Source: an uncultured Gammaproteobacteria bacterium (GTDB lineage: Bacteria; Pseudomonadota; Gammaproteobacteria; JAURND01). From it: a DNA stretch of 64,000 bases. The position numbers and the translations under genes were made by a program. A model generated the notes under the pieces. The model saw nothing but the letters and a program-made list of their open reading frames with translations, was not told the DNA's origin and did not search any database. The stretch spans positions 128,001 to 192,000 of the forward strand of contig CAVQQD010000001.1 in assembly GCA_963714975.1 (NCBI GenBank). The letters run 5' to 3'. Below, piece by piece: positions 11,801 through 29,787 of this stretch. Position 1 is the stretch's first letter, and each line of letters begins with the position of its first letter.

Positions 11801-13209
11801 AGCAAACCGCCGCTGTTGCCCAGTTACTACTTAAAATCCATGCCCTCGATCCAATGACTGGTTCACAGCTAGTAAGTTGCATTCGATTTTTAAACGTCGC
11901 TCAATTCGGAGCTTTGACTCGAGCCATGTCGGCCATAGCTCCTGAGCAGGCAAAGAAAATAATCCAAGCAAACTCAGCAAAGAAAATAATCCCAGAACAC
12001 GTCATGCTGGCTTGCGCAAAAACAAACCCTGAACTCGTAGCCGAAATTTTTGCTTCGCTACTAACCAAGCGAGCATTGTTACGAGAAAGGTTTCTGCCAG
12101 AAGTTGCTAAAATATTTAAAGAGGATGAAGAATTCCTGACGCTGGATGACAATAAACACACGACCAATAAGCCTGTACTCCCAGCAATTGGGAGAATAGA
12201 GCAAATATTGATGGAAGAACATCCAAAAGCCTATGCGTGTATCCTAATTAACTTGGCGTGTATGGCACTCAGAGAAAAGCAAAACCATCATCCCCACTTA
12301 GAAAAACTACGAAAACTACCCGAAGAAACTCAAATAGCCGCTATAGCAGAGCTTATCCAAGGTGGTTATGGCTCGGAAGTTATAGAAGTGTATGGAAAAA
12401 AGAGCAATGTGCCAATATTAGCAAAGCTTAAAGAAGCAGATAACCCCAAATACCCTGAATATTATGCAAGTCAATTAATAAGCCAATTCATGTTGGCTGA
12501 TGAACCCAAGTACAGCTACCTGAATAACAGAGCAAATACAAAGCCATCCCCAGAAATAAGACATGTTAGCCAAGCTTTAGAATATATAGTAGCAGACAAT
12601 GTCCAGAATGCTTGCGACATAGTATTAGGCGCATTACAAGAAATCGAACCTACACCTGAAGATAAATTGGTTACTACAGAGACTGCAATGTCTTCGCTAT
12701 CTCGATTAGTTGAAGTTAGCAAGGTGATGGGTCAATTCATCACGGAGTATCCACAACCAGCCGCGAAATTTTTCCTAGCACTCGCATCTAATGGAAACGG
12801 CAGAATTAGGCCAGATTGCGTAAATCTTCTGTTAGCACTGCAGTACTCAACCTCTCCGGTATCTTATCAACGCCTGCAGCAAAACATGGAAAAGAGAAAT
12901 CCAAGCTTAACAGAAAAAATTTCTAGTGTTGTTCAGGAAAGAGCGACACGTTTGGATCCAGAATTTCTATTCGCATTTTCTTCTAATCGTCCCGAGATTG
13001 AACGACTAAAAAAGATTTTTACTAACAAAGAAGAAGCTGCGGCTTTAATGCGATTAAATCCCAATCTTAATAGAATCCAAGGTCCGGGTTCATTGAGCGT
13101 TTTCCACGATCTTAACAGGGATACAAATGACATTAATTCCTCCGGTCAAATTTCAACGATCAGTTCTTCAAGAACGAACACATCTACTACTTCTACATCT
13201 ACTACATAA
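8809..13209 (+). CDS. Large orphan protein (1466 aa), candidate secreted effector
   Basis: Long intact ORF with S/P-rich low-complexity N-terminus, two central hydrophobic segments and S/T-rich C-terminus. No recognised family. Confidence 0.8.
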   Translation: MDAKLEKTPSTPDDNSFPKRKNILTSPTSIASSAPIYAGPTLSQIQLLGNSLSAQLDHNFQTFRREFKEISDLEQEDPKKFIKALEDLAVKVNNFREGHRQQHTDFGGYTPVNNPHWDYFKKLLQYHKAYAPSPPNSVATSPSYPNSNSQSSSATSSPIRSPSPLQGTPATRTEQKISADVDDADDPLTPIQPGFDKRKKRQRKPLPLPSLDALQQKLDALHFSSIENQDVTNQSQISDTHEVKTIHYEDATPLLDDAPQSPSDETDPISPPPQALLVPKDFSILNQYCTNRYKTFAPAERKEFSGLHHAIEAKIASAAEAFKQEQARIQELWFKSSEEKRYLELVTKFLELKSSLASHGKTARFVTELRTLTEQISKESSAHSQKHGSQVKPDWAQLTQACYLLQLYALSELAHAIDYMVFPDQTTIKFNADVKPARNVVVLAHYCAIYPDLRQAEKSEDIAARLTGSTTQWQDLAHKSILNVQTKRASISPWSFFRSPEDTQFNLYAKHFFAYQSKLRGNTSAPEVMDEIWEFTQTIETYKKNWQHHNPEQNFEDSQEHFNDLLRASYVLWLDAYDKTYSSQEQAIPEHIEYKINCLVIPQAPEEKQNGGLDHEAIETFKRQNQAEHDQQQLVRLEHWIRENPFKLVLGLVSPILIWQGYRFGTHPDQAKEFAEKILANDWYSILIFGTAALLGIYGICIRNKKQAIAKSNEQLLKQVTNLTPQTTETKTGRPTKVEPKENAATNPQEIFHAAFRQFSLPLPATLKNAIPTDTKAATAALVQLLEEGQGTKAAKIYQGSKGFFQFEDKAPQKALELILRAQALREIRASQPDPRSDKKNNKDNKKTTQSASNEQVLGLRYLVKHGYVHDAADLVFDTEGHCNALGKKAGAKSEEIIAADLYRCSQGNPVHIWTVKLEILSLCEKRYVEEKKGYARDKVVNGLYYFINAESSQAANLLLKMLNLDPITIQTPSNNHDGNSLFTLAIALDEVRDQGSKQTAAVAQLLLKIHALDPMTGSQLVSCIRFLNVAQFGALTRAMSAIAPEQAKKIIQANSAKKIIPEHVMLACAKTNPELVAEIFASLLTKRALLRERFLPEVAKIFKEDEEFLTLDDNKHTTNKPVLPAIGRIEQILMEEHPKAYACILINLACMALREKQNHHPHLEKLRKLPEETQIAAIAELIQGGYGSEVIEVYGKKSNVPILAKLKEADNPKYPEYYASQLISQFMLADEPKYSYLNNRANTKPSPEIRHVSQALEYIVADNVQNACDIVLGALQEIEPTPEDKLVTTETAMSSLSRLVEVSKVMGQFITEYPQPAAKFFLALASNGNGRIRPDCVNLLLALQYSTSPVSYQRLQQNMEKRNPSLTEKISSVVQERATRLDPEFLFAFSSNRPEIERLKKIFTNKEEAAALMRLNPNLNRIQGPGSLSVFHDLNRDTNDINSSGQISTISSSRTNTSTTSTSTT

Positions 13210-13226: not shown

Positions 13227-14934
13227 ATGCAACTACCATTAGGGTACGATGATTTTAAAAAAATTAGAGATAAACAACTCGATTGGGTTGATAAAAGTTT
13301 ATTTATCCAAGAAATCCTCGATGATAAAGCTACTGAAGTAACCGTAATCACCCGTCCCCGCCGTTTTGGCAAGACTCTAAATTTGTCTATGCTGCATTAC
13401 TTTTTGGCAGCTAAAGCGCACGGACAATCCACTCAAGGTTTATTTGATGGCACGAAGATTGCTGCTTTGGGTAACGAATATATGCAACACCAAGGCCGTT
13501 ATCCTGTGATCTTTGTCACCTTTAAGGAGGTGAAAAATAATCACTTTGAAGCTGCTTACGGCATGATGAAGAAACTCATGTCACAGCTTTATCGAGAATA
13601 CCAGCATGAACTACCAAATAGTCCACGATTAACCTCGAGTGATAAAGAAAAATTTCTTGCTGTGCTGGAAGAGCGGGTTGATGAATCAGCAGTTCGTTCG
13701 GCATTGGTTGATTTATGCTATTACCTGTATCAGCATTATCAAGTCAAACCTTGGTTGCTGATCGATGAGTACGATACTCCGATTCAAGCTGCTTATGTGC
13801 ATAACTACTATGACCCAATGCTCAATCTAATGCGGGGGATTCTTTGGCCCCGCGTTAAAAACCAATCCCTATCTCGAAAGAGCGGTGATTACCGGCATTT
13901 TACGGGTTGCCAAGGAAAGTCTATTTTCAGGGTTAAATAATTTAAAAGTCTATACTTTGACGAATTCTCAATATGGGCAGTATTTTGGTTTTACTGAAGA
14001 CGAGGTAGAAAATTTACTCCAGCAAGCAGGCTTACAACAGCAAGCACCTGCGATTCGTGATTGGTACAACGGTTATAAGGCCGGAACATACACCGTCTAC
14101 AATCCCTGGTCGATCGTCAATTGCATTCGCGAACAAGGAGAATTAGCGCCTTATTGGGTCAATACCAGTGATAATCACCTGATTAAAACCCTATTACTGG
14201 GATCGAATGAAGGCTTTAGAACTCAATTTGAGAATTTATTACAAGGGAAGACGATTGAGAAAGCAATTGATGAAACTTTGGCATTTGCTGATCTAAATCC
14301 CCAGGGAGGTAGGAGTGATTCAGCAGGTTGGAGTTTATTGTTTGCAGCAGGTTATTTGAAAGTGATTGCTTCACAACGCATTGGAGCAACATTACATTGC
14401 CAGTTAGCAATCCCTAATGAAGAAGTGCGCAGTTTATATCAACAAATTATCCAGCAATGGTTAGCTGATGGGCGTGACGAAGCATGGTTTAATACTTTTT
14501 TAAATCACTTACTCACGGGTGATTTAGTAGCCTTCGAACAGGATTTAAAACATCTGGTTGAACAAACATTCAGTGTCCACGACATTTCCAAAGATCCTGA
14601 AGCGTTTTATCACGGTTTTATGGTTGGTGCGACAGCAAGTCTGTACCACAATCCAAATTATGAAATTAAATCGAATCGGGAGGCTGGTTATGGTCGCTAC
14701 GATTATATGATTTTTTCGCATGATAAAAATAAGCTGACGATTTTAATTGAGCTCAAACGAGTACCCAAAGATACCCCTAATTTAGATCAAGCCTTGGAGC
14801 AAGCGGCGCAACACGCTTTGGAACAAATGGAATTGCAGAATTATGCGGCTGAAGCGAGGCAGCGTGGCAGAACTAAGATATTGCAGATTGGCTTAGCATT
14901 TTCTGGCAAGCGGTTTAAATTATTGTCGCAATAA
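13227..14934 (+). CDS. AAA-ATPase-like + PD-(D/E)XK_9 nuclease protein, copy 1; one frameshift near 13843 (possibly an assembly error)
   Basis: LPLGYDDF, VDKS, TRPRRFGKT, LIDEYDTP, ITGILR, YNPWS and SNREAGYGRYD...IELK. One extra base in att-ctt-tgg separates the two ORFs. Confidence 0.88.
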
Positions 14935-14986
14935 GGTTGTAAAAGTGGTGAATAGTTACTAAAAAATTAGGATAGTTCACAATTTT

Positions 14987-17059
14987 ATGGATAGATTTCT
15001 TCGCATTGTGGTGTTTTTCCTTATCAGCCAGACTTGCCTGGCAGCGGATATTAGCGTTATTCGCGATCCTTTTCTGTTGCTAAATCAATTTTATGCCCTG
15101 AAAGCCAATCATCCTAATCTTGCTTTTGGGGCGTTAAAATTATTATTACTCCAAGATCCTAATAATGTCACTGCTTTAAAAGAAATGGGTTATTGGCAAC
15201 TTGCGCATAACCATCAAGCAGAAGCCGTGGATTATTTTATAAAAGCTAATCGACTTAAACCAGATCCACAAATTGCGTTACAAATTGCTTACATTGATGT
15301 GGCACTAAAGCAAAATCAGCAAGCCGAGGATTACTTAAAAAGCGTCATCAGTTCCGGGCAATCGGAATTGGCAGCTAAAGCCCAAGTGGCCTTAGCGAAT
15401 ATTCAAGGGGTCGCACCTTCAGCGCCGTCGGCTGCTGCGACCAGCCCAAGCCCTGCGCCTGCACCTATTGCAATACCAGTACCTACTCCAGCCGCCCCAC
15501 CCCAAAAAAAACCGCAGCCACAAATCTCGCCACGCGACGAACAGCTAAATCAATTTTATCATTTACAAAAAACTGATCCGGTTGCCGCAGAAAAAATCTT
15601 GCGCCAATTGGTAGAGCAGTATCCCAATGATCCCCAATTGTTAAATCAAATGGGTTACTTGCAATTGCAGCTGAAAAATAAACCCGCCGCTATCCACTAT
15701 TTTTCGCAATCCTACCCGCTGCAAAAAGAATCCACGATTGCGTTGCAATTAGGTTATTTGTGGGCGGAAACCAAGCAATACGAAAAAGCGGTGGAATATT
15801 TTACCGCGGCGCTGGCGAGAATCACCGATCCGAAATTAAAACAACAAGCCTCAGCCGCCCTGACCTTCAGTAAAAAAGCCTTACATCCGCCCGCACCTCC
15901 GCCGGCAGCCAAACCGCAATTAGCGGCAAAAGCACCGCAATTATCGCTAACCGAGCAATTGCTGAATGAATATTATCCGCTTAAAAAAACCAACCCCACC
16001 GCGGCACGAACTTTATTATTGACCCTACTCCAGCACGATCCCTACAATACCACAGCGCTGCTTGAATTAGCCTACTCTTACAATGCAGAAAAAAATTATG
16101 ACCAAGCCTATATTTATTTTTTACGCGATTATCAAATAACCCACAACCCAGAAATTGCCGTGCAGTTAGGTTATGTGTTAGATGCCTCTGATCACAAATA
16201 TCTTGCCTACCACTATTTTGTTGAAGGGGCGCAAAGTGCTGATCCAGCCTTAAGTTTAAAAAGTAACCAAGCTTTAACCAATTTAGCGGGTTGGAATACC
16301 CGCGCGCTGCCGTCGCCATTGTTTGCAGATGTGTATTTATCCCCCCTGTATTATGGGCGATTTAATTTAGGGGTTTTGCCTTATATTGTTCGTGCAGGTG
16401 TTTACTTAGATCAAGCCCATCGCACCGAATTATATACATCTTTGCGCTATACTCGGGATAATAAATCGTTGCTATCGGCCGGCGTGTCGCCAGAAATTTT
16501 TGAAGATGATGTGATGGTAATGGCTCTTGGCATACGACATCAATTGTTCAAGAAATTCCCGTTGTATTTTTATACTGAGGCTGGAGCGGCTTATGACTTG
16601 GTCTACCGTTTGCGTCCGCGTTGGCGAGGCGATTTTCGCAGCGGCTTTATTGCTTATGATAATTGGGGTCGCAAGCCGACCTATCAACCTGAATTTACTT
16701 TTTTATTTAAACCCGTGGGAGATTTTTATGGCGATCTGACTTTCTACACTCGCTATGGCGATGACATCATTGGGACGGCGCGGGTACGGCAAGGATTTCG
16801 TGTAGTGGAATATCATGCTAGTTTCATCGATATTTATTTAAAAGGGCAATATGGCATGGATACCTTGGGTCAGTATTATAATAATTATCTGGAATGCGGA
16901 CCTGGCATTGCTTGGGTGCCCAATAATCGTTACAACCTAGCAATACGGCTGGAAGCTATTCAGGGGTATTATATCGATGTAAATAGCCCCACCCCCAATC
17001 CCTTTAGTCCTCATTATAGTACCAATAATATTCAACTTGAGCTTTATGCTCGTTTTTAG
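14987..17059 (+). CDS. NfrA-like TPR + outer-membrane beta-barrel protein
   Basis: Signal peptide, three TPR clusters separated by P/A-rich linkers, aromatic-rich beta C-terminus ending in F, adjacent to the nfrB-like gene. Confidence 0.7.
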   Translation: MDRFLRIVVFFLISQTCLAADISVIRDPFLLLNQFYALKANHPNLAFGALKLLLLQDPNNVTALKEMGYWQLAHNHQAEAVDYFIKANRLKPDPQIALQIAYIDVALKQNQQAEDYLKSVISSGQSELAAKAQVALANIQGVAPSAPSAAATSPSPAPAPIAIPVPTPAAPPQKKPQPQISPRDEQLNQFYHLQKTDPVAAEKILRQLVEQYPNDPQLLNQMGYLQLQLKNKPAAIHYFSQSYPLQKESTIALQLGYLWAETKQYEKAVEYFTAALARITDPKLKQQASAALTFSKKALHPPAPPPAAKPQLAAKAPQLSLTEQLLNEYYPLKKTNPTAARTLLLTLLQHDPYNTTALLELAYSYNAEKNYDQAYIYFLRDYQITHNPEIAVQLGYVLDASDHKYLAYHYFVEGAQSADPALSLKSNQALTNLAGWNTRALPSPLFADVYLSPLYYGRFNLGVLPYIVRAGVYLDQAHRTELYTSLRYTRDNKSLLSAGVSPEIFEDDVMVMALGIRHQLFKKFPLYFYTEAGAAYDLVYRLRPRWRGDFRSGFIAYDNWGRKPTYQPEFTFLFKPVGDFYGDLTFYTRYGDDIIGTARVRQGFRVVEYHASFIDIYLKGQYGMDTLGQYYNNYLECGPGIAWVPNNRYNLAIRLEAIQGYYIDVNSPTPNPFSPHYSTNNIQLELYARF

Positions 17060-17074
17060 GAGTCGAGAAAAATC

Positions 17075-18922
17075 ATGCTAATTTTATTTGATCTGATGTG
17101 GTTTTTATTGATTGTAATTGCTGCAGTATTTTTTCTTTTTGGTTTGGATGGGGTGTTTCTCGATTTATATTATATGGGCTATAGCTTGTTTCGTGCGATT
17201 AAAAAGCGTAAATATCCGCCATTAACTTATGAGCAATTGGCCAATTGTCCCGAGAAAAAAATTGCCATTATTGTGCCGTGTTGGCAAGAGGCCAATGTGA
17301 TTGGGGATATGTTGCGGCATAATGTGCGGGCCATTGATTATCGTAATTACACTTTGTTTGTGGGGGTTTACGCCAATGATCCAGAGACGGTGGCCGTGGT
17401 GCAGGAAGCCGAAAAAACCTTTTCTTCAGTGTGTTGTGTGATTGGTTCCAACCCTGGCCCCACCACAAAGGCAGATAATTTAAATGCGATGTATGCCTAT
17501 ATCTTAGCTCAAGAAGCGAAATTACCGGAACGCTATGAAATTATTGTATTACACGATTCAGAAGATATGATTCATCCGCTTTCTTTGAAATTATATAATT
17601 ATTTAATTCCGCGCAAAGAAATGGTGCAAATTCCTATTTTTCCTTTGGCAGTCAATTATTTCAATTTTACCCATTGGATTTATAACGATGAATTTGCCGA
17701 ATACCATACTAAAGATATCATTGTCCGTGAGGCAATTCGTGGTTTAGTACCTTCGGCCGGCGTCGGGACCGCTTTTGCCCGTCGCGCGATTGAGCGACTG
17801 ACGGAAGATAATCCGGGGAAATTGCCGTTTGCGTTGGGACATTTAACCGAAGATTACAATACTTCGTTAAAAATTCGCTTGGCAAATTTTAAAGCGATTT
17901 TTCTTACTCAAAAAATTTGGCGCAAGCAATACCAACGAAATTCTTTTTCTTCACGTTTGTATCTGCGTAAAGTTAAAGAATATGTGGCAACCCGCGCGCT
18001 TTTTCCCACGGAGTATACTAAAGCAGTTCGACAAAAGGCCCGATGGATTATCGGCATCGCGATTCAAGAATGGTTGGAAACCGGTTGGAAAGGCGACTTT
18101 TCTACCCGCTATTGCTTGTTAACCGATCGCAAGTCGTTGTTTACCCATTTGGTCAATGGTCTTGGTTATGTGGTATTTTTATTTTGGGTATTTTATGCCT
18201 GGTGGCAATTTTATCATCCAGCTTACCCCAGCTTACAAGATCAATTTAATCATTGGCCGCTAGTATGGTATTTAATTTTAGGCTGTACGATCATTATGGT
18301 GGATCGTTTAATCCAACGGATGATTGCCACCTGGCGAGTTTATGGCATTATTCCGGCCTTGCTCAGTGTGCCACGCACCTTTTATGCCAATATATTAAAT
18401 CTTCATGCGGTATTACGTGCTTACCATTTGTTCTTCTTTAATCCGGTGAATAAAAAACAACCGAAGTGGGAAAAAACCGAGCACATTTTTGCTCCGAGCC
18501 CAATCCTTCGTTCCTCTGATAAAAAATTAGGTAATTATTTGGTAGAGGAAGGGTATTTAAGTGAACCAGAATGCGTACAAATTTTGAGTGAGCAATTACA
18601 AACGGGCGAGCGCATGGGAGACTTACTGATACAAAAAGGCATTTTATCTCAGGACCAACTGTATCAGCTATTAGCAAAACAATATAATCTACAATACCTG
18701 CCAAAACTCCCGGCGATTCTGCCACGTGAGCAATTGTCTGGAGTTTCAGCAAAAGATTATCAGTGGATGTTAGAAAATCAGTTCTTCCCGATTCAATTAC
18801 TCGCAGAGGATCCTGAATTATTGCTCGCCATTGTCGATCCTGCCAATACCGCCGGCATGGAAAGAGTGGAAAAGATTTTAGCAGGGTATCAAGTTCGCTG
18901 TGTCTTAGTTAAAAATACGTAA
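17075..18922 (+). CDS. nfrB: NfrB-like GT2 glycosyltransferase with C-terminal MshEN c-di-GMP-binding domain
   Basis: VPCWQE, GPTTKADNLN, LHDSED, VPSAGVG, LTEDY, RQKARW and WEKTEH motifs. Tandem MshEN motif KLGNYLVEEGYL...RMGDLLIQKGIL. Confidence 0.82.
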   Translation: MLILFDLMWFLLIVIAAVFFLFGLDGVFLDLYYMGYSLFRAIKKRKYPPLTYEQLANCPEKKIAIIVPCWQEANVIGDMLRHNVRAIDYRNYTLFVGVYANDPETVAVVQEAEKTFSSVCCVIGSNPGPTTKADNLNAMYAYILAQEAKLPERYEIIVLHDSEDMIHPLSLKLYNYLIPRKEMVQIPIFPLAVNYFNFTHWIYNDEFAEYHTKDIIVREAIRGLVPSAGVGTAFARRAIERLTEDNPGKLPFALGHLTEDYNTSLKIRLANFKAIFLTQKIWRKQYQRNSFSSRLYLRKVKEYVATRALFPTEYTKAVRQKARWIIGIAIQEWLETGWKGDFSTRYCLLTDRKSLFTHLVNGLGYVVFLFWVFYAWWQFYHPAYPSLQDQFNHWPLVWYLILGCTIIMVDRLIQRMIATWRVYGIIPALLSVPRTFYANILNLHAVLRAYHLFFFNPVNKKQPKWEKTEHIFAPSPILRSSDKKLGNYLVEEGYLSEPECVQILSEQLQTGERMGDLLIQKGILSQDQLYQLLAKQYNLQYLPKLPAILPREQLSGVSAKDYQWMLENQFFPIQLLAEDPELLLAIVDPANTAGMERVEKILAGYQVRCVLVKNT

Positions 18923-18935
18923 ACGCCGCTCCGAG

Positions 18936-18965
18936 ATGACAGCACTAAAGGTTTTAGGCTAAAAT
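18936..18965 (+). promoter_or_regulatory. Putative sigma70-type promoter of the AAA/nuclease gene (second copy at 22543-22572)
   Basis: ATGACA-N18-TAAAAT here and ATGACA-N18-TAGAAT at 22543, conserved before two paralogues. Confidence 0.5.
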
Positions 18966-18981
18966 CTAGACCCTTGTCGCT

Positions 18982-19030
18982 CTGTAGGGGACAAAAATAA
19001 TCCCTCCCTTTGGAAAAGGGGGAAATTATG
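18982..19030. repeat. REP-like palindrome, family B (CCCCCTTTnnAAAGGGGG)
   Basis: Related hairpins at about 22391-22501, 30356-30480, 54088-54150 and 63555-63720. Confidence 0.7.
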
Positions 19031-19062
19031 AAGGACGACGCTTTCACCAGTGAGATGCTTCT

Positions 19063-19589
19063 ATGCCATTACCTTTAGGTCACGATGATTTTAAAGAACT
19101 TATTGATTATCGATTGGATTTTGTCGACTCGAGAGTCCTAAGTTCCAGCCACAAATCCAGGATGTAGGAGTAATTCAGCAGGTTGGAGTTTATTGTTTGC
19201 AGCGGGGTATCTGAAAGTGGTTGCTTCACAACGCATTGGAGCAACATTACATTGCCAGTTAGCAATCCCTAATGAAGAAGTGCGCAGTTTATATCAACAA
19301 ATTATCCAGCAATGGTTAGCTATCGAACAGGGAGAGTGGTTATGGTCGTTATGACTATATGATTTTTTCGCGTGATGAAAACAAACCAACAATTTTAATT
19401 GAACTCAAGCGAGTATCCAAAGATACGCCTAATTTAGATCAGGCCTTGGAACAAGCCGCACAACACGCTTTGGAACAAATGGAATTGCAAAATTATGCGG
19501 CTGAAGCAAAGCAGCGCGGCAGGACTAAGCTATTGCAGATTGGTCTAGCGTTTTCAGGTAAGCGGTTTAAATTGCTATGGCATTATTGA
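19063..19589 (+). pseudogene. AAA-ATPase/PD-(D/E)XK nuclease copy 2, with two large internal deletions
   Basis: MPLPLGHDDFKELIDYRLDFVD start, then a block matching about 14309-14466, then the C-terminal nuclease end matching about 14669-14934. Confidence 0.88.
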
Positions 19590-19799
19590 AATTACCACGT
19601 AGTTTTTTTAATCGCCATGTGGTTGAATAAGCATCTGGGTATCCACATGGAACATAATGGCCTGGATTTAGTGAGTCATGACGCTTTTTACGTGACTGAT
19701 AATCGAGATAGGTTACAATATAAAGCCACATCACGGATTGGCATAAAACAGGCTACTGATAAATTATGGCGATTTGTGGCGGTACCCACCTGCCCTTAA
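19577..19799 (+). pseudogene. DNA-3-methyladenine glycosylase (MPG family) remnant A
   Basis: MALLKLPRSFFNRHVVE joined out of frame to C-terminal ...LNKHLGI...SRIGIKQATDKLWRF. Confidence 0.75.
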
Positions 19800-19827
19800 T
19801 ATATCCTTCATATTTGCCTGTTATTAT
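19795..19827 (+). promoter_or_regulatory. PmrA-like tandem box plus -10 element
   Basis: cTTAAtatatccTTCAtatt-N7-TATTAT, with the same geometry at 24542-24574 and 30509-30541. Confidence 0.55.
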
Positions 19828-19851
19828 TGGTCAAATTTTAATATTTATTTT

Positions 19852-20049
19852 GTAATCATTCACCATCTTTGTGCGTAAAAATCCTTCTCCCCTTGTGGGA
19901 GAAGGTGCCCGAAAGGGCGGATGAGGGGTAAACTTGAAAACAGCAAGAAGCATTTTATTAGCTAACTGCTGCTTACCCCTCACCCGCGCGCCTTACGGCG
20001 CGGCGGCCTCTCCCACAAGGGGAGAGGCAAAATCGTGGTGAATGGTTAC
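19852..20049. mobile_element. MITE-like element with terminal IRs GTAATCATTCACCA...TGGTGAATGGTTAC and internal family-A hairpins
   Basis: Terminal inverted repeats, near-identical copy at 24599-24801, flanking imperfect direct repeats. Confidence 0.75.
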
Positions 20050-20098
20050 CACAGTTTTTAGTATTTATTTTAATTAAACGAAACTTAAGAGGTTTAAC

Positions 20099-22352
20099 AT
20101 GTCAACACAAAATTCGCAACCCGGGGCCCCAACTAACCCAGTGAATGCCGAGGTTACACCTCCTCCTTCGTCTAGTCTTTCGTCTAGTTCTTCATCGCAC
20201 TCAGGCTCAAGCCAAACTTCGACTACTTCTATTACTTCTACTTTGTCTCCTGTTACACAACTTGATCCAATTGAAGCCAAACAAGCCCAAGCTCCCGATA
20301 TTACTGACGTGGTTTATGCTATCCAGGTTTTAAAAGGATCAGCAGGTTATCTAACAGGAGAAAAAAAGGCTGCAGACTTCGACAAGTTGATCCAAGCTGT
20401 CGAGACAGATAATCCTACATTTTTCTACGGCCATGTGGTGCGTAAAGCAATTGCAATACGATTCCTTCAGGAATTTCAGAAAACGGTAAAAAAACCTAAA
20501 TTTTTTTTTACAGAAACCGCGAAATTTGGACAAGCTTTTCATACTGCTAATATTCAAGTCGCTTTATACATCCAAGGAATCTCAGGATACCCAACTTACG
20601 GAGGAACAGAGGAATAGCGCAAAATTTCAGCTTACGTCGGTGCTGCAAGATTTCGACACGCTACATCGTGACAATCAAACTCGTTTCCAGGATATTTTGA
20701 CACAGCCCTTGCCTGCAAACCTCTTAGAGCAACTTACGCAATCAGAAGCTAAGAAATCATCACCGACATCTCCAACTTCAACTGCGGAAGTAAAATCAAA
20801 TTCTAGCTCCGACCCGGACAATACTCGAACTTCTGATATAGCTTATGTTGTCAAGGTGTTAAGGGATCACTATATAAAAGATAGTGCCACCGGTACAAAA
20901 GCGCAGATTAGCAAGTTTATACGGAAGATCAGCGAGGAAGGAGATCCGGATGGATATTTCCTGCCCAATAAAAAACGTGCAGGGATTGCTGTAACAATTC
21001 TCAACCAGCTTTTGCGACTACCAAGAGATGATGGATTCCTCACTTCAAATCTGGTTTTCAAACTTAGACAGGCTTTTGTGAGCGATGACTTTGCCCTTCC
21101 TGATACTGACCCCAACCATCAGCAGTGGAGTAATTTTACGGGTGAGCAATTACAGAAAATTAATTTAATTTTAAAGAAAGCTTTTAGCCAGTGTGATGCA
21201 CATTTTACAGATGGGAGCACGCCTTTTGCCACACTCTATCAGGAGCTTTCGACGCAAGAATTGTCCCAACAGTTTTTAGACACTATCCGAATGAGAGATT
21301 CCAAACACAACCCAGGCCCCAAGCCCAATGACTCTAATAATTCTGTTAAGTCTCCTCAGGATCTGCAGAGAGAGCTTCAAAGCTTATATCGTCCCCCTGC
21401 AAACAATGCGCTCCCGGATACAAACTCACAGTCAAGAACAGAACGGAAGGGGGCTACGCAACCTGCTCAAAAAATAAGTTCCGAAGAGGCAGAACAATAC
21501 CGCCAACAAATCTTTGATATGGTTTATGTGGTCCAGGCATTTAACCGCTCACTTTTTGAGACTAACTATCCTCTTTACACCATTCAGGAGTTGATTAACC
21601 GAATAGACACAGACAAAGATTCAGATTACCAGACCCCTAACCGTAAAAAAATTGCTACAGGTGTTCTTGCAGAATTCCAAAAGATCAAACGCAAGAAACG
21701 TGAAAAGAACGATACGGTTCACGAGGGTGTAAAACTTATGCAGTGGTCTCTTCAGCAGGCTAGATCTGCAGACGAGCAACAGCCGCTACCTAATCCGTAC
21801 CAGGATCAGATTACAGCAAAAGATTTTAGTCCGAATGATTTAATCGATGCTGAGTTCGCTTTAAGGCGTGGGTGTCAGGAACTAGACAAATGTGGTAAAA
21901 CTGAGTTCCTAAAGCGATTTTATCAGCTTCTCGGAAAGGAAGTGCCTGTGCCAGCCCCAACCCCAACTCCCAGTTGCTCTTTTTGGAAGCCAGCAGCAGC
22001 AGCAGCAACAATTCTGGGAGTGGGCGGAGCCAGCACTGGGTTATATTATGCATTCGCTTACGGGAACAGTAATGATTGGGAAGGGATTACGGGAGCTTTT
22101 AGCGCAATGGGAGATTGGCTCTCGACCCCCGGGGGGAAAATTCTTGGTGGTACTTTAGGGTTAGTAGCGATATTCATCATTTTGGCCGCCGCGTTGTCGT
22201 ATTGTCGCGCGCGTTATAGTGCTGCAAATGGATATGAGCCTCTACCTACTAAACAAGATAGCAACAACTCCAACCCAACAACTCCAGAGAGCAAGGACTC
22301 CAACTCAACAAACCCCGAGATCCGCGCCGTAACTATCACACAAGAAATATAG
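20099..22352 (+). CDS. Effector-like repeat protein, paralogue A (3 modules + TM hairpin); one frameshift within about 20500-20590
   Basis: ORFs 20099-20617 and 20526-22352 overlap and together form a protein colinear in style with 24851-27130. Confidence 0.72.
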
Positions 22353-22390
22353 AAGTACCGAAATCGGACGAGGACCCCGGCGCTGCTTTT

Positions 22391-22501
22391 AAAATCCCCC
22401 CTACCCCCCTTTTTCAAAGGGGGGACAAAAGCAGCTTCCTCTCAAGGGGGGACCAAGCGGCGGCTTTCCCCCATTTGAAAAAGGGGGGTAGGGGGGATTT
22501 T
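22391..22501. repeat. Composite family-B palindrome after paralogue A
   Basis: aaatcccccctacccccctttttcaaaggggg ... ccccatttgaaaaaggggggtaggggggattt inverted pair. Confidence 0.75.
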
Positions 22502-22610
22502 AGAAGCGGGGATTTTAAAAGCAAGGTCTCTTCCTCCCTCAGATGACAGCACCAAGAGTTTTAGGCTAGAATCTAGCGAATCTAGCCATTTCCCCATCAA
22601 GGTCCCTTCT

Positions 22611-24330
22611 ATGCGACTACCTTTAGGTTATGACAATTTTAAAGCCATTATCGACAAACGACTGGATTTTGTTGATAAGAGCTTATTAATTCAAGAAATT
22701 CTGGATGATGTTGCTCAAGTAGCAGTAATCACCCGCCCTCGCCGCTTTGGTAAAACTCTCAATTTATCCATGCTGCACTATTTTTTAGCGGCTAAAGCCT
22801 ATGGTCAATCCACCCAAGGATTATTCGATGGCATAAAAATTGCTGCATTGGGTGAAGAATATATGCAGCATCAAGGTAAATATCCGGTGATATTTGTCAC
22901 TTTTAAAGATGTGAAAGATCATCGCTTTGCGACTGCGCTATCGGAATAATGGAGAGCTATGATGGCGACAGTTTATCGAGGAACATCAGCTATATTCTAT
23001 CCGGAGAGTCCACACTTAACTGCCAGTGATAAAGAAAAATTTCTTCTATGCTGGAAGAGCGCGGCTGATGAAGCGAGCAATCGCTCTGAATTGCGCAATT
23101 TAAGTTACTACCTTTACTCAGCACTATCGAGTCAAACCCTGGTTATTAATCGATGAATACGATACTCCCATTCAGTCCGCTTATTTGCATAACTATTACG
23201 AGCCAATGATCGATTGATGCGAGGTGTATTTGGCCCGGCGTTAAAAACCAATCCCTATTTAGAAAGAGGCGGTGATTACCGGCATTTTACGGGTTGCCAA
23301 AGAAAGTTTATTTTCAGGCTTAAATAATTTAAAAGTTTATACGTTGACTCAATTCTAAATACGGGCAGTATTTTGGTTTTACTGAAGAAGAGGTAGAAAA
23401 TTTACTCACAGCAAGCCAGGCTTACAACCCAAGCGCCTGCGATTCGAGATTGGTATAACGGTTATAAGGCCGGAACTATACCGTCTACAATCCTTGGTCG
23501 ATCGTCAATTGCATTCAGCGAAAAGGGAGAATTAGCGCCTTATTGGGTCAATACCAGTGATAATCAACTGATTAAAACCCTATTGCTGGAATCGAGTGAA
23601 AGTTTTAGAGACTCAATTTGAAGATTTATTACAGGGCAAGACGATTGAGAAAGTCGATTGATGAAACTATGGTATTTGGTGATTTCAATCAGAAAGTAAC
23701 GGGGATTCAGCAGCTTGGAGTTTATTGTTGATGGCGGGTTATTTGAAAGTGATTGCTTCACAACGCATTGGAGCAACATTAGCATGTGCCAGTTAGCATA
23801 TCCCTAACCGGGAAGTGCGTAGTTTATATCGGCAAATTATCCAGCAATGGTTATCTAATGGTCATGGATACGAAATGGTTTGATTGTTTTTAAATCATTT
23901 ACTCACGGGTGATTTAGCTGCCTTCGAGCACGATTTAAAACATCTGGTGGAAGAAACCTTTAGTGTCCATGATACTGCCAAAGACCCTGAAGCGTTTTAT
24001 CATGGTTTTATGGTGGGAGCGACAGCGAGTTTGTATCACAATAAAAATTATGAAATTAAATCCAATAGGGAGAGCTGGTTATGGTCGTTATGATTATATG
24101 ATTTTTTCGCATGATGAAAACAAACCAACAATTATCATTGAACTCAAGCGCGTACCCAAAGATACCCCTAATTTAGATCAGGCATTTACGCAAGCGGCGC
24201 AACAAGCGCTTTGGAACAAATGGAATTACAAAATTATGTGGCTGAAGCCAGGCAGCGCGGCAGAACTAAAATATTGAAGATAGGTTTAGCGTTTTCAGGT
24301 AAGCGGTTTAAATTGCTATGGCATTATTGA
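22611..24330 (+). pseudogene. AAA-ATPase/PD-(D/E)XK nuclease copy 3, full length with many single-base frameshifts
   Basis: Colinear at DNA level with 13227-14934. Fragment ORFs at 22611, 22959, 23884 and 23963 cover successive parts. Confidence 0.85.
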
Positions 24331-24546
24331 AATTACCACGTGGTTTTTTTAATCGCCATGTGGTTGAAGTGGCGCAGGACTTGCTAGGCAAAGTGCTGGT
24401 GGTCGGCAATTTGCAAGGCATCATTACTGAGACAGAAGCTTATCGGGGTGCAGACTAGGTTACAAAGTAAAGCCACGTCACGGATTGGCATAAAACAGGC
24501 TACTGATAAATTATGGCGATTTGTGGCGATACCCACCTGCCCTTAA
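24318..24546 (+). pseudogene. MPG glycosylase remnant B
   Basis: MALLKLPRGFFNRHVVEVAQDLLGKVLVVGNLQGIITETEAYRGAD, then a jump to KATSRIGIKQATDKLWRF. The TEAY motif is typical of MPG. Confidence 0.8.
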
Positions 24547-24598
24547 TATATCCTTCATATTTGCCTGTCATAATTAGTCAAATTTTAATATTTATTTT

Positions 24599-24801
24599 GC
24601 AATCATTCACCATCTTTGTGCGTAAAAATCCTTCTCCCCTTGTGGGAGAAGGTGCCCAAAGGGCGGATGAGGGGTAAACTTGAAAACAGCAAGGAGATTT
24701 TATTAGCTAAATGCTAACTGCTGCTGACCCCTCACCCGCGCGCCTTACGGCGCGGCGGCCTCTCCCACAAGGGGAGAGGCAAAATCGTGGTGAATAGTTA
24801 C
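24599..24801. mobile_element. Second full copy of the 19852 MITE
   Basis: Near-identical sequence and the same context. Confidence 0.75.
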
Positions 24802-24850
24802 CTCAATTTTTAGTATTTATTTTAATTAAACGAAACTTAAGAGGTTTAAC

Positions 24851-27130
24851 ATGACAGAACAAAATTCGCAACCCGGGCCCAAAGCCGAGGTTACACCTCC
24901 TCCTTCATCGAGTTCTTCGTCTACTCCTTTATCGAACTCAGGCTCAAGCCATGAAGTCATAGATTACAGTTCATTTTATCCGCAAGATTCGAAACTTACT
25001 GACATCACCCCTGACCAAACTACTAAAATCACTAATGTTCTCGCTGCCACTCAGGCTTTGGCCAATTATTATCTAACACACCATACTGACTATGGTACAA
25101 CCGATAATACAAACAAAATTGCAACCATTATCCCGTTCCTCAAAGACCATGATCCTAGGGGATATTTTTCCAAAAATAAGGATGCACGTCAAAACATTGC
25201 TGAACAATTTCTGAAAGAATTTCAGAAATTAGAAAAGTCCCAAGGAACAGAAACAGTTGTATCAGCAATCAAGTTAGTTAACATGTCGCTTAGTCCAGAA
25301 GTGAACGGCCAAAGGAGGGGCGATTTTTTTCCTCTTCTAAACAACAATCAACCGCTTTCACCCGAACAAACACTAGCAGCCACACGTATTTTGCCTGACT
25401 TATTTAGAATTATGGATACCGCTAGTCTGTACTGTTCTACTGAATTTTCCGGTGTCTATAAGAAAATCGTGACTGAGCCTTATGAGAATTTAACTGGACC
25501 TGGCGGGACAACGCTCGAATCCAAGGATTCAGGTTCAGCTCCACAAAACCAGAATTCTGCAGAGTTACAAAACAGACTGGAGGCAAAGAATAACCACCAA
25601 GCAATCAGCGATACCGTGTATGTATTTCAGGTACTGGATCGAGCCTATAAAGATTCACTTAGTCCTGGTGGCATTCAGAAATTGATTAGTGCAATAGACT
25701 CTCCTGGGGGAGATGAATATTTCCCCAAAAATCCTACACTCGGAGATGGACGTGGAGAAGAGCGAGGAAGAATTGCGCTACTTTTCCTTCGAGAGTTCCA
25801 AAAAATGGATTCGAGGGCAGAGGGTTTCGAGGGTGTAGCGAAAATTAAGAGTGGTATCAGTAACATTATGTCTAATTTGAGGCTTACCAGATCCAGATCA
25901 GGTCCCCAATGGATCCTACCATCCTCTTCGCTCAACCATGAGGCCCATGCATTTTCAGACGATCAATTATATGATCTTTGGAACGGCCTGGGTTTAGGAT
26001 GTCTTACATTAGATCGGGTAAATCGTAAGCAAAACGGGTGTGATTTTGTAAATGCTCTTTATAACGCTTTCTACCGCAAAAACATGCCTGAATCTGCTCT
26101 AACCCCTGTGAACATGTTTGAACCTGCTCCAACCCCTAGTTGTTCTTTTTGGAAACCGGTTTTGGGTGTAGCAGTAGTAGTAGGAGGAGGAGGACTTGGC
26201 ACTGGATTATATTTCGCAATCAAGCACGGACAAAGTAATAACTGGGAAGGTATGAAGCATACTTGGGATGCCATTTCGGATGGGTTCTCGGCTCATGCAA
26301 AAGTTATTATTGGTGCTACGGGAGGGTCAGTAGCAATTGCAGCGCTCTTGCTGCTCTATCTATGGTACCGTTTCGGCAAAGATGCAGATAAAGGTCTAAA
26401 TGCTCCTGTGGCTACTCAATCGACAGTTCCGACAGGCGATAAGGAGAAACTAGCTTCGGATGAGAAGTTAACTGGGGCAGAAACAAAAGTCGTTAAAGTC
26501 GTTCGGGAAGAGCTCAAAAGGGCGGGCAATGTCCCTCTTCTGCAGCCAAAGGAATGGAAGAATGCTGAGAAAATAGATTTTAAAATGATTGAAAGCGATC
26601 CCTCCCGCCTAGACAAGATTCAAAAGCACATCACTGACACAGTTTATGTGTTTCAAGTATTTGACCACTTTCTTTTTAAAAATAAATATCCTGGCGAAGA
26701 GATTTCGGCTTTGATTAAAGAAATAAAGGATGGTCACAGCTTCGTGATTCCAATTCCAAAGAACTTTCCACAACCACCCCGCGCAGGGATTGCTTTACTA
26801 TTCCTGGAAGAACTCCAACGCATTGAACCTATTGTTAGTAAAAATGGAGTTAAGGAATGTGTAAACTACATTGGAGACTGTCTTAGGGATGTTAGACAAG
26901 GCCAGCCCCCTTTAACAGAGTTGTACCCAAATGATCCGCGATGCGGAAAGACATATGAGACGGCTGATTTAGCCGATGCTGAATTGGCTTTGAGGCTTGG
27001 GTGCGAGAAGCTAGATAGTTACTATAATGCTAATTTTTCAAATGCGCTTAATTTGGCTCTTTATGGAAAGCCTAAACCAGCTCCAGAAGTTCCTTCGGAA
27101 ACCACTCGGAGCAGCACCTTGACCTCATAA
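24851..27130 (+). CDS. Effector-like repeat protein, paralogue B (2 modules + TM hairpin + 1 module)
   Basis: Intact 759-aa ORF with repeated DTVYVFQV...IA..FL.EFQ modules and TPSCSFWK followed by two hydrophobic segments. Confidence 0.8.
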   Translation: MTEQNSQPGPKAEVTPPPSSSSSSTPLSNSGSSHEVIDYSSFYPQDSKLTDITPDQTTKITNVLAATQALANYYLTHHTDYGTTDNTNKIATIIPFLKDHDPRGYFSKNKDARQNIAEQFLKEFQKLEKSQGTETVVSAIKLVNMSLSPEVNGQRRGDFFPLLNNNQPLSPEQTLAATRILPDLFRIMDTASLYCSTEFSGVYKKIVTEPYENLTGPGGTTLESKDSGSAPQNQNSAELQNRLEAKNNHQAISDTVYVFQVLDRAYKDSLSPGGIQKLISAIDSPGGDEYFPKNPTLGDGRGEERGRIALLFLREFQKMDSRAEGFEGVAKIKSGISNIMSNLRLTRSRSGPQWILPSSSLNHEAHAFSDDQLYDLWNGLGLGCLTLDRVNRKQNGCDFVNALYNAFYRKNMPESALTPVNMFEPAPTPSCSFWKPVLGVAVVVGGGGLGTGLYFAIKHGQSNNWEGMKHTWDAISDGFSAHAKVIIGATGGSVAIAALLLLYLWYRFGKDADKGLNAPVATQSTVPTGDKEKLASDEKLTGAETKVVKVVREELKRAGNVPLLQPKEWKNAEKIDFKMIESDPSRLDKIQKHITDTVYVFQVFDHFLFKNKYPGEEISALIKEIKDGHSFVIPIPKNFPQPPRAGIALLFLEELQRIEPIVSKNGVKECVNYIGDCLRDVRQGQPPLTELYPNDPRCGKTYETADLADAELALRLGCEKLDSYYNANFSNALNLALYGKPKPAPEVPSETTRSSTLTS

Positions 27131-28081
27131 AATACTTGGCAGCAAGGAACAAACCGCATCGATGCGTTTGAGCATAGGTTCATCGAGGAGCGGGGCTACC
27201 CCTAACGCGCCAAAGTTTTCTCTGAGTTGCGCTTCTTTGGTGGCACCTAAGATCACCGAGCTGACATGCGGGTTTTTTAGGCACCAGGCAATGGCTAGTT
27301 GGGATAAGCTACAGTCCAATTCCTGAGCAATAGGTACGAGGGCGCGCACTACTTCGAGCTGGTCTTCCATGTCATTTTCTCGCCATTGCGGGTAGCGACC
27401 GAGACGAGCGTCGCTAGGCATACCAGAATTATATTTGCCGGATAATAGCCCGCTGTTTAGAGGGCTCCAGGTCGTTAATCCCATGCCATGCCGGGAATAT
27501 AATGGCGCATATTCATTTTCAACCCGGTAGCGATGAAATAAATTGTATCTTGGTTGTTCCATGGAGGGGGGGATGCAATGCAAATGGTAAGCAAGTTGAT
27601 AAGCACTATCAATTTGCTCCGCACTCCACTCGGAAGTTCCCCAATAAATGGCTTGACCACTGCGAACGATAGCGTTCATGGCACGGACGGTTTCTTCAAT
27701 GGGGGTGAGTGGGTCGGGGCGGTGACAGAATAATAAATCGACGTAATCAAGTTGCAAGCGTTTTAAGGAATTTCGGGTGCCTTCTATCAGATGTTTCCGC
27801 GACAGACCCTGATCGTTAATTCCCTTGCCACCCCAAAAAAGCTTGGTGGAAATAACCAGATCCTCACGCCGAAAGCTTTTCAGGGCTTCACCCATGATAA
27901 TTTCGGCTTGCCCATGACCGTAGCCTTCAGCATTATCAAAAAAATTCACCCCCTGGTCAAAGGCGAAGTGCATCAAGGTCTTCGCTTCTTTGAAACCAAC
28001 TTGGTCACTAAAAGTAAGCCAAGAACCAAAAGAAAGCGCGCTGACACGAATGCCGGCTTTGCCTAATTGTCGGTATTCCAT
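27125..28081 (-). CDS. Aldo/keto reductase (Kv-beta-like)
   Basis: MEYRQLGKAGIRVSALSFGSW, FFDNAEGY, ISTKLFW, HRPD and WSPL motifs. Confidence 0.93.
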   Translation of the reverse strand: MEYRQLGKAGIRVSALSFGSWLTFSDQVGFKEAKTLMHFAFDQGVNFFDNAEGYGHGQAEIIMGEALKSFRREDLVISTKLFWGGKGINDQGLSRKHLIEGTRNSLKRLQLDYVDLLFCHRPDPLTPIEETVRAMNAIVRSGQAIYWGTSEWSAEQIDSAYQLAYHLHCIPPSMEQPRYNLFHRYRVENEYAPLYSRHGMGLTTWSPLNSGLLSGKYNSGMPSDARLGRYPQWRENDMEDQLEVVRALVPIAQELDCSLSQLAIAWCLKNPHVSSVILGATKEAQLRENFGALGVAPLLDEPMLKRIDAVCSLLPSIL

Positions 28082-28087: not shown

Positions 28088-28206
28088 CCCCTCACCCTAA
28101 CCCTCTCCCACGAGGGGAGAGGGGATTTAAGCCCCTAACCCTCTCTCACGAGGAAAGAGGGGATTTTAAAGCCCCCTAACCCTCTCTCACGAGGAAAGAG
28201 GGGATT
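28088..28206. repeat. Three tandem hairpins CCCTAACCCTCTCYCACGAGGRRAGAGGGGATTT
   Basis: Three consecutive near-identical units with essentially no spacer. Confidence 0.85.
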
Positions 28207-29787
28207 TAGGCATGTTCCCGAGTGGCTAAAAACTCAATATCCGGCCACCGCTCCTGTGTCAAACTTAAATTCACCATGTTCGGTGCAAGATAAGCTAAAT
28301 TTTCGCCGCCGTCTAGGGCTAAGTGATTGGCGAGATTTTTGCTGAATTCAGCCAATTTTTGCTTATTTGTGCTTTTTACCCAGCGCACTGTAGCAATCGC
28401 GGCAGGTTCATAAGCACAGACTACGTTGTATTCGCTTTTTAAGCGGTAAGCCACCACATCAAATTGTAAATTTCCCACTGCCCCCAAAATATATTCATTG
28501 CTTTGTAACGGCCTAAATAATTGCGTGGCGCCTTCTTCGGATAATTGCAACAAACCCTTTTGCAAGGCTTTTAATTTTAAAGGATCCTTGAGTCGGACAA
28601 TACGAAAAATTTCCGGAGCAAAATAAGGAATGCCGATAAATTTAAGCTCCTCCCCTTGGGTAAAGCTATCCCCAATTTGGATGGTGCCATGGTTATGCAG
28701 ACCGATAATATCTCCGGGATAAGCTTCTTGCACCCGTTCTCGCTCGCTGGCCATAAAGGTTAGGGCATGATGCACGGTGACATCGCGTTGGATACGTACT
28801 TGGTGGATTTTCATGCCAGCGATATAACGCCCCGAACAAATACGTAAGAACGCCATGCGGTCGCGATGAGCAGGGTCCATATTGGCCTGAATTTTAAACA
28901 CAAAGCCGCTAAATTTATCTTCGTCGGGGACTACTTCGCGCGTGAGAGTGGCTCTGGATTGGGTCGAAGGGGCATAGGCAATTAAGGCATCGAGCAATTC
29001 CCGGACGCCAAAATTATTGATCGCCGAGCCAAAAAATACTGGGGTCAATTGGCCCTGCAGGTAAGCCTGATGATCAAAACTGGCGCTAGCGCCGCTGACT
29101 AAACCTAATTCTTCTCGAAAAGAATCTGTATCGTTACCCAAAATTTGTCTGTAAGCGTGGATCGTCTAAGCCTTGGATGGTTTCGCTTTCCTGAACACGT
29201 TCGCTTTTTCCTGGCTGATAGTGGTAAATACTGTGATGCATTAAGTCGTAGACGCCTTTAAAATGTTTGCCCATCCCCATGGGCCAGGTCATGGGCGCAC
29301 AGCGAATTTTGAGCACTGATTCAATTTCGTCGAGTAAGTCAATCGGTTCGCGGGTATCGCGATCCATCTTATTGATAAAGGTGAGAATGGGAATATTACG
29401 CATTCGGCACACTTCGAGCAGCTTAATGGTGCGTGGCTCGACGCCTTTGGCGGCATCAATGACCATTAAGGCAGAATCCACCGCCGTCAGGGTGCGATAG
29501 GTATCTTCAGAAAAATCTTCATGGCCAGGGGTGTCGAGTAAATTGATAACATGGTCTTGATAGGGAAACTGCATCACCGAGGTAGTAACCGAAATTCCCC
29601 GTTGTTTTTCCAGCTCCATCCAATCGGAAGTGGCATGGCGGGAAGATTTCCGCCCCTTGACGGCCCCAGCAAAAGTAATCGCGCCGCCAAATAATAATAA
29701 TTTCTCAGTCAAAGTGGTTTTGCCGGCATCCGGATGGGAAATAATGGCAAAAGTACGACGTTTGGCAATTTCTGCAGTAAGATCCAT
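28206..29787 (-). CDS. prfC: Peptide chain release factor 3; single frameshift near 29140-29147 (likely assembly indel)
   Basis: [48 protein letters not shown] and LSEEGA motifs. Removing one A in ACAAATT fuses the two ORFs. Confidence 0.95.

Follow-up and report, generated by a model that had tools for sequence, protein, structure and literature searches.

The DUF1703 array and its repeat units

The window analysed here, a 64,000-nucleotide stretch of contig C1 (C1:128001-192000), belongs to the 2.56-Mb genome of an uncultured gammaproteobacterium, which is assembled in three contigs (C1, C2 and C3) with an estimated completeness of 93.75% and a G+C content of 42.5-44.8% per contig (about 43%). 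This genome is referred to as G000, and its relatives are coded G001 and so on. The window carries an array in which a gene for an AAA-ATPase_like (PF09820)/PDDEXK_9 (PF08011) protein, hereafter DUF1703, occurs in three direct copies that begin at about 13227, 19063 and 22611, as found by open reading frame (ORF) analysis, repeat finding and self-BLAST. The copies are alike at 83-90% over 0.25-1.7 kb, which is far above chance. An earlier sequence-only reading of this stretch had described three directly oriented copies of one nuclease gene; ORFs, self-BLAST and Pfam agree with it as to the copies and their direction. They are not three working genes, however: one copy is frameshifted, one is a remnant and one is a pseudogene. 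The PF09820 profile was matched by the N-terminal ORF of copy 1 with 117 bits and by the copy 3 fragment with 79.4 bits (gathering cut-off 26.1), and the PF08011 profile by the C-terminal ORF of copy 1 with 53.2 bits and by the tail of copy 2 with 28.3 bits (gathering cut-off 25.5), while the 104-amino-acid (aa) fragment of copy 3 gave no PF08011 match in the Pfam search.

Copy 1 (13227..14934, + strand) consists of two ORFs, and its sole defect is one extra T at 13840 that causes a 1-nt frameshift; comparison with four intact paralogues revealed no further defect. Copy 2 (19063..19589, +) is a remnant in which ~530 nt are kept and about 1.2 kb are deleted. It retains the first ~65 nt of the gene, a 162-nt middle block with 96% identity to copy 1 and a 268-nt tail with 90% identity to copy 3, and over its first 70 nt identity with the other two copies is no more than 76-79%. 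Copy 3 (22611..24330, +) is a pseudogene with 22 frameshifting indels; over 1735 nt it shares 83% identity with copy 1. Two of the three local nuclease copies are dead. Upstream of copies 2 and 3 lies a common 35-nt sigma70-like putative promoter that agrees with 10 of 12 consensus positions, located at 18935..18969 (+; ATGACA, 18-nt spacer, TAAAAT) for copy 2 and at 22542..22576 (+; ATGACA, 18-nt spacer, TAGAAT) for copy 3. This ATGACA-type promoter is the nuclease family's own and recurs ahead of several dispersed DUF1703 copies. A repetitive extragenic palindromic (REP) sequence stands between the promoter and the gene of copy 2 (18980-19023), and a pair of REP-type palindromes with genome-wide copies occupies 22385..22507 (inverted pair I2).

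Downstream of copies 2 and 3 the homology extends for ~530 nt and then for ~100 nt into the coding regions of two paralogous genes, A and B. The earlier reading had noticed both the common upstream promoter and this downstream leader, and both were borne out (35 nt and about 530 nt, respectively). The leader is built from three parts, namely an internally deleted mpg gene (3-methyladenine DNA glycosylase), the paralogue family's promoter and a full-length 205-bp miniature inverted-repeat transposable element (MITE). The mpg stubs proposed earlier are real, as they match Pfam PF02245 at E 1e-9 and 4e-9. Stub A (19592..19799, +) keeps profile positions 123-177 together with about 12 N-terminal codons, and stub B (24330..24543, +) keeps positions 2-38 and 157-176, with an internal deletion unlike that of stub A. 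Since the two stubs retain different positions of PF02245, their common ancestor must have had a fuller mpg gene, from which pieces were lost separately; a search of the G000 genome gave no further mpg. The third part, which had been taken for a MITE end, is in fact the whole element. In unit A it lies between the paralogue promoter and the ribosome-binding site (19845..20050) and is 98% identical to the complete copy of unit B (24592-24810). G000 contains 31 copies of this MITE of at least 120 nt, and an internally deleted mini-copy that consists of both ends only lies just 5' of the 1466-aa gene at the left of the array (8707..8789; inverted-repeat pairs I1-I5, blastn). At C3:228 kb the same MITE family is found in the same 5' untranslated region (UTR), at a different position and in opposite orientation.

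The promoter within the leader (19794..19827, +, and in unit B 24541..24574, +) is made of tandem TTAATAT/TTCATAT half-sites followed by a -10-like hexamer. This 34-nt promoter-like motif, CCTTAATATATCCTTCATATTTGCC plus the -10-like hexamer, precedes all five paralogue genes of the genome, with sites away from the array at C3:228106, C2:791158 (-) and C2:337554. No nuclease gene lies near the paralogue-type promoters at C2:791 kb and C2:337 kb. Since the promoter stands before all five paralogues, two of them without a nuclease gene, it belongs to the cargo family and not, as had been assumed, to the nuclease unit. A strict genome-wide scan for the motif returned 6 sites, against 0-1 in five shuffles, and 4 of the 6 were paralogue promoters; there was no sign of a large regulon by this strict pattern, which also missed the promoter of paralogue B itself. 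In addition, the five genes have a common ribosome-binding region of the AAGAGGTTTAACATG type. Promoter and ribosome-binding region together hint that the paralogue family may be under one regulator. The tandem motif may resemble the PmrA box of Dot/Icm effector genes.

As the sequence-only reading had stated, each copy is followed by different genes. Behind copy 1 lie the genes for a TPR/outer-membrane-type protein and an NfrB-like glycosyltransferase. The former (14987..17059, +; Pfam TPR families) has 690 aa, ends in ...YARF and is NfrA-like by position and architecture only, with no NfrA_C match at E up to 0.01. The latter (17075..18922, +) is a GT2 enzyme with a C-terminal MshEN-type c-di-GMP-binding domain (PF13641, PF13632, PF05157); it scored 443 bits against NCBIfam NF008411, below the cut-off of 1170 bits, and above the cut-off of NF053729. 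Compared with an NfrA/NfrB pair, the NfrB-like gene has the GT2 and MshEN-type domains, and in the upstream gene TPRs were found but no match to the NfrA_C barrel. Copies 2 and 3 precede paralogues A and B. Paralogue A (20099..22352, +) is split into the ORFs 20099-20617 and 20526-22352 (172 and 608 aa) and contains three copies of a repeat of ~150 aa and a C-terminal hydrophobic hairpin. Paralogue B (24851..27130, +) is an intact gene of 759 aa; besides three repeat units it has a hydrophobic hairpin in its centre, at about residues 437-505. Both belong to a lineage-specific family of five genes characterized by one to three copies of the ~150-aa repeat (I.D.VYV.QV ... IA..FL.EFQK) and by the hydrophobic hairpin, the other members being located at C3:228402-229868, C2:788455-791027 (-; in three pieces) and C2:337662-338729. 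The paralogue proteins are only 26-33% identical.

Paralogue B matched only itself among the 8000 scored candidates of near length in a search of 5.8 billion proteins; it had no match in the PDB sequence search, Pfam, NCBIfam or PADLOC and no usable match in the ESM Atlas. Copy 1 is preceded by a gene for a 1466-aa orphan with one hydrophobic segment (8809..13209, +; residues 683-704 by hydropathy scan). Its orphan status, claimed before, was confirmed, as there was no Pfam or NCBIfam family and the in-genome search returned the self match only. For an intact copy of DUF1703, for paralogues A and B and for the NfrA/B-like pair, PADLOC-DB v2 gave no match at E up to 0.01, and its one weak match, at E 3.5e-4, fell on the 1466-aa orphan.

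Gene conversion and the probable history of the locus

We were able to show that near-identical tracts between local and distant copies result from recent gene conversion. Copy 1 (13500-13839) and the copy at C1:343957, which lies ~200 kb away, agree over a 348-nt tract with at most one mismatch, in a pair with an overall identity of 88%; the maximum obtained by permutation was 114, and none of 2000 permutations reached the observed length. The extra T of copy 1 sits at the end of this tract. A second tract, of 116 nt and again with at most one mismatch, connects copy 1 (14357-14466) with copy 2 (permutation maximum 86; 0/2000). Best-match partners switch along all three local copies, and in copy 2 stretches like copy 1 alternate with stretches like copy 3 as in a mosaic. 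Further pairs elsewhere in the genome behave similarly; in one of the five pairs tested, C3:226359 versus C3:383934, 3 of 2000 permutations reached the observed tract length. Units A and B are 90% identical in the nuclease tail, 94% in the paralogue promoter, 98% in the MITE and 96% in the 5' UTR; in the paralogue coding sequence identity is 87% over the first 101 aligned nt and then drops down to 30%. The earlier proposal that the repeats serve as homology substrates is thus supported by the conversion tracts, by the mosaic structure of copy 2 and by the common block before divergent paralogues, whereas nothing shows that the nuclease drives rearrangement.

The array is probably no dedicated shuffling system but the passive result of repeat-driven duplication and gene conversion in a known expanded family, accompanied by decay. 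Plain tandem duplication followed by decay, which the earlier reading had named as the simpler alternative, comes close to the truth but needs gene conversion to be added. The 1.7-kb DUF1703 genes with their own short promoters are the longest dispersed repeats on hand for homologous recombination. The locus may have started from two old units in tandem, each composed of a DUF1703 gene and a membrane-protein paralogue, one of which would have carried mpg between the nuclease gene and the paralogue promoter and the MITE in the 5' UTR. A conversion or unequal exchange could then have transferred to the adjacent unit the whole stretch from the nuclease interior through mpg, the promoter and the MITE up to ~100 nt into the paralogue; its left anchor would presumably have been the interior of the nuclease gene, and its right anchor the conserved promoter together with the 5' end of the paralogue. 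The later steps are recorded in the copies themselves: the mpg copies lost different pieces, copy 2 lost 1.2 kb, copy 3 gained frameshifts, and short conversion tracts kept moving between copy 1, copy 2 and distant copies. Copy 1 itself is a separate old paralogue that by chance lies 5.8 kb upstream. We infer this order of events from the remains of the locus.

The family across the genome and competing explanations

The search by tBLASTn and ORF analysis revealed 24 DUF1703 loci in G000, of which 12 are intact (557-572 aa) and 12 are broken. The six closest intact copies form 15 pairs, in which dN/dS (the ratio of non-synonymous to synonymous divergence) was 0.09-0.23 at a dS of 0.43-1.68, and the paralogues are therefore old and under purifying selection. 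Homology between copies breaks off at the stop codon and, on the 5' side, within ~100 nt of the start codon; since the paralogues are old and diverged, missing flank homology needs no special mechanism. A cassette restricted to the coding sequence, argued from the missing flank homology, was considered and dropped in view of these dS values. The neighbours at the 24 loci were taken from greedy ORF calls, and 37 of the 113 neighbour proteins scanned against Pfam had no family at 1e-5. The genes downstream include priA, queF, radA, guaB and genes for a dicarboxylate symporter and a P-type ATPase, as well as orphans, and outside the array housekeeping genes and orphans are equally frequent neighbours of the family. 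The family marks variable cargo only in part: 10 of the 24 loci adjoin hairpin orphans, and others precede housekeeping genes.

Several observations go beyond purely passive decay. The ORFs that adjoin these 10 loci are lineage-specific and have hydrophobic hairpins; five of them are singletons, three are members of the paralogue family, and the other two, at C2:115 and 127 kb, represent a second family. This association is only suggestive. A DUF1703 gene immediately precedes three of the five genes of the paralogue family, namely A and B in the array and the one at C3:226-230 kb. The 205-bp MITE lies at most 1.5 kb from 8 of the 24 loci, against an expectation of 1.3, and none of 2000 random placements reached 8, with the restriction that a single event is counted twice through copies 2 and 3 and that the null ignores the confinement of both features to intergenic regions; neither orientation nor distance of the MITE is fixed. 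At C2:193303-195061 and 195737-197509 two copies are 89.7% identical over exactly the gene, and the 675-nt spacer is not duplicated. In G000 an insert of 2.6 kb (C3:381424-384061) parts dotI/icmL from dotH/icmK and contains a MITE, an ORF of 203 aa with a hydrophobic hairpin and, on the opposite strand, an intact DUF1703 gene; the two dot genes are neighbours in four of five family relatives, and in the fifth they are separated by a second dotI-like gene. In G001 a DUF1703 gene lies between ccmB and ccmC (L083:5183-8477), and ccmA-B-C-E is uninterrupted in G000. Finally, the theme of a DUF1703 gene with an orphan is repeated at C2:113-129 kb with another orphan family. The order within C2:113000-129000 is a 690-aa orphan, a 95-nt upstream element and a broken DUF1703 gene, then further on the element, an intact DUF1703 gene, a 572-aa orphan and the element again, with folE immediately behind. 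The 572-aa orphan is 73-75% identical to the 690-aa orphan at the nucleotide level, and the third element, which stands alone, points to the loss of another unit.

As a rival explanation, DUF1703 genes could be selfish, gene-sized mobile units of promoter, ribosome-binding site and ORF that insert in short intergenic spacers, perhaps via breaks made by their own nuclease, with local arrays seeded by recombination, so that the array would be the footprint of an active element. We regard this as unlikely. In its favour, besides the insertions between dotI and dotH and between ccmB and ccmC, another G001 copy (L082) stands between a TenA-like gene and thiO, 11 of the 12 intact copies in G000 are co-oriented with the next gene (8 of these within 39 nt), the homology between copies is bounded by gene and promoter, and the distribution across relatives is patchy, with 32, 8, 4, 1, 1 and 1 match rows, which are not copy numbers, in six genomes and none in the other 15 of 21. 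On the other hand, at the dS found among the closest intact copies neutral flanks would be unalignable in any case, and gene conversion by itself could hold coding regions similar. Terminal repeats, target duplications or a conserved insertion motif were not found among the copies, nor was a fresh near-identical full-length pair, the closest whole-gene pair being about 90% identical. Transposition by a PD-(D/E)XK/STAND protein has no known mechanism, and the DUF1703 protein had no match in PADLOC or PDB sequence searches. Since gene-sized insertions in operons, the proximity of MITEs and the hairpin-orphan neighbours are left unexplained by passive recombination, there is a modest chance that these genes are mobile. 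The fuller version, in which they are autonomous selfish elements of the short spacers in conserved operons that recurrently come to lie beside fast-evolving, effector-like hairpin genes and the MITE, and whose mutual recombination duplicates, converts and deletes these neighbours, seems to us rather doubtful; if true, what is seen in the array would be just one outcome of a nuclease-linked mechanism of plasticity that acts genome-wide.

The remaining explanations are much weaker. The sequence-only reading had proposed a cargo-swapping locus, in which cassettes of nuclease and leader would bring different host-facing genes under the control of a common promoter and leader. Indeed, one leader with the first ~35 codons stands ahead of two very different paralogues, there are three units of a DUF1703 gene with a paralogue (two in the array and the one at C3:226-230 kb), and C2:113-129 kb forms a second array with the other orphan family. 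However, two of the three local nuclease copies are dead, the leader consists of a decayed housekeeping gene and a MITE, its promoter is owned by the cargo family and also occurs away from nuclease genes, and many other DUF1703 copies precede housekeeping genes. Neither a recombinase nor a recombination site was found: none of the ORFs scanned with Pfam between 8.8 and 27.1 kb gave a recombinase family, and the unit borders carry no terminal repeats or attachment sites, only genome-wide REPs, MITEs and the two promoters. At six loci in the relatives G001, G002 and G008, moreover, there is no co-oriented orphan downstream. Such a dedicated system is therefore extremely improbable. That the repeats, or their frameshifts, were made by the assembler or by polishing is very unlikely. 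Of the 22 indels in copy 3, 18 are 1-2-nt insertions outside homopolymers, which is odd for natural pseudogene decay, and prfC, rnr, paralogue A and copy 1 are split as well. Nevertheless, the three copies differ by 10-17% and share identical tracts of at most 348 nt, so collapse or false duplication is unlikely; 12 other family copies read through cleanly, and paralogue B, next to copy 3, is an intact ORF. Repeat-driven duplication, conversion and decay remains the reading that we prefer.

Protein architecture, known systems and genomic surroundings

The Walker A motif RPRRFGKT and the Walker B motif (L/V)LIDEYD are present in all 12 intact copies, and a D...E-x-K motif was found by pattern in 11 of them; D496, E512 and K514 are invariant across 46 aligned sequences. 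The AlphaFold model from this 46-sequence alignment reached a predicted local distance difference test score (pLDDT) of 89.6 and a predicted template modelling score (pTM) of 0.81. Foldseek gave 27 matches at E up to 0.001, led by Orc1/Cdc6, MalT, Apaf-1, NLRC4, CED-4 and archaeal ATPases. In VIA-align, residues ~6-480 of the model reached Z 17.1 to 2qen (310 aligned residues, root mean square deviation 4.5) and 16.8 to 2fna, both archaeal ATPases, Z 14-15.5 to the NB-ARC modules of plant NLR proteins and CED-4 (15.5 for 9h2l, 14.3 for 2a5y) and 11.3 to Avs5 (9jap), so that in the test for an NBD-HD1-WHD fold the predicted model scored Z 14-17 over 280-310 aligned residues. Residues 340-571 gave Z 10.9 to the Wolbachia CinB nuclease, and TnsC chains gave about Z 10. 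From the model we infer that the DUF1703 protein probably combines an NB-ARC/Orc-like ATP-switch domain with a PD-(D/E)XK nuclease that may be controlled by ATP, and that it probably oligomerises. In its predicted residues ~6-480 it is like the STAND/NB-ARC ATPases (Apaf-1, CED-4, plant NLRs and Avs, as well as the archaeal PAB2304 and SSO1545), with a nuclease effector attached. Unlike STAND proteins, it has no C-terminal repeat sensor (TPR, LRR or WD40 in Pfam), and its nuclease domain is C-terminal.

Multi-copy, recombining DUF1703 families are already known from Cardinium (PMC6387759). In Cardinium hertigii cCpun, 25 divergent and recombining DUF1703 paralogues have been reported, with smaller expansions in other Cardinium strains and relatives in Simkania and Rickettsia; DUF1703 expansions are scattered across prokaryotes and are given no known function there (Siozios et al. 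2019, PMC6387759). The likeness to cCpun includes the same two domains, ~25 copies, the small genome of an intracellular-type bacterium and old, recombining paralogues. Unlike in Cardinium, the host is a Dot/Icm-encoding gammaproteobacterium and half of the loci are broken, and the insertions in operons, the MITE association and the hairpin-orphan neighbours are not described in the available part of PMC6387759. DUF1703 is a very widespread family: in species-representative genomes, at least 614 relatives were found among at least 618 matched stretches; among the matches listed (the best 80) were Gammaproteobacteria, Legionella sp., Francisellaceae, Rickettsiales and many records of Lachnospiraceae.

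With segmental duplication and conversion, as in insertion sequence (IS) copies, rRNA operons or surface-protein paralogues, the array has in common mosaics, near-identical tracts, deletion remnants and junctions inside homology; unlike an IS element or an rRNA operon, the repeat is a protein-coding gene under purifying selection. No common terminal inverted repeats or target-site duplications, as expected of a transposon, IS element or MITE, were found among the DUF1703 copies, and the ORFs scanned in the array and its borders gave neither the site-specific recombinase nor the repeated recombination sites of an integron or shufflon. Palindromic elements of the Rickettsia type, REPs and MITEs are abundant in the leader and at the unit borders, but here they are passengers of the repeat unit and not its ends, and they vary in orientation and in distance from the nuclease genes. 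Free-standing homing-endonuclease genes of phages are likewise gene-sized nuclease ORFs that lie between conserved genes with a patchy distribution, and they home to one cognate site between alleles. In contrast, DUF1703 occupies 24 different sites in one genome.

With this genome, a gammaproteobacterium that encodes Dot/Icm joins the known hosts of large DUF1703 expansions, and recent gene conversion is documented between copies that are 5 kb and 200 kb apart. By a worked history of one locus our work also removes the tempting but unsupported view that the array is a new system. The fold and the habit of residing in operons lead to two ideas for DUF1703, an immune-type nuclease or a selfish mobile gene.

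Pfam scanning of the neighbour proteins showed that G000 encodes DotI/IcmL, DotH/IcmK and a DotG-type protein, which marks the organism as a gammaproteobacterium of the intracellular type that has a type IVB secretion system. Only 9 genomes make up its GTDB order, and the nearest of them are ~60% identical in HemW; the 20 relatives compared stand at genus distance or greater (hemW at most 61% identical), and the hemW relatives found in a metagenome scan were at most 60% identical. The left conserved border of the locus is hemW (7562..8710, +; radical SAM and HemN_C by Pfam). Within 13-20 kb around hemW in five relatives, matches were obtained for hemW in all five, for cysQ in two and for mdh in one, and the remaining 12 window proteins had zero matches there; the order mdh-cysQ-hemW is also kept in the relative G003. 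The right border is an aldo-keto reductase gene (27125..28081, -; Pfam), followed by prfC (28206..29787, -), which in the ORF listing falls into two ORFs (311 and 217 aa) that overlap. The rnr gene at C3:250.5-252.7 kb is split in the same manner, and both may be real pseudogenes or reflect assembly indels.

Further along the window, genes for an AbiEii-type nucleotidyltransferase toxin and an AbiEi-like antitoxin lie at 32172-34225 (-). AAA_14 plus DUF4143 ATPase genes occur at window 2120-3496 (+) and C3:463479-464720 (-), one of them adjoining a DUF1703 remnant. A PDDEXK_2 gene of the Rpn/YhgA type ('nuclease family transposase') at 44670-45596 (-) represents a second nuclease family of the multi-copy type close to the array. 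At 38900-43627 the window encodes Ku and a full-length LigD whose domains are a phosphoesterase, a ligase and a primase-polymerase; the two form a pair for non-homologous end joining, and this in a small genome full of repeats and nuclease genes.

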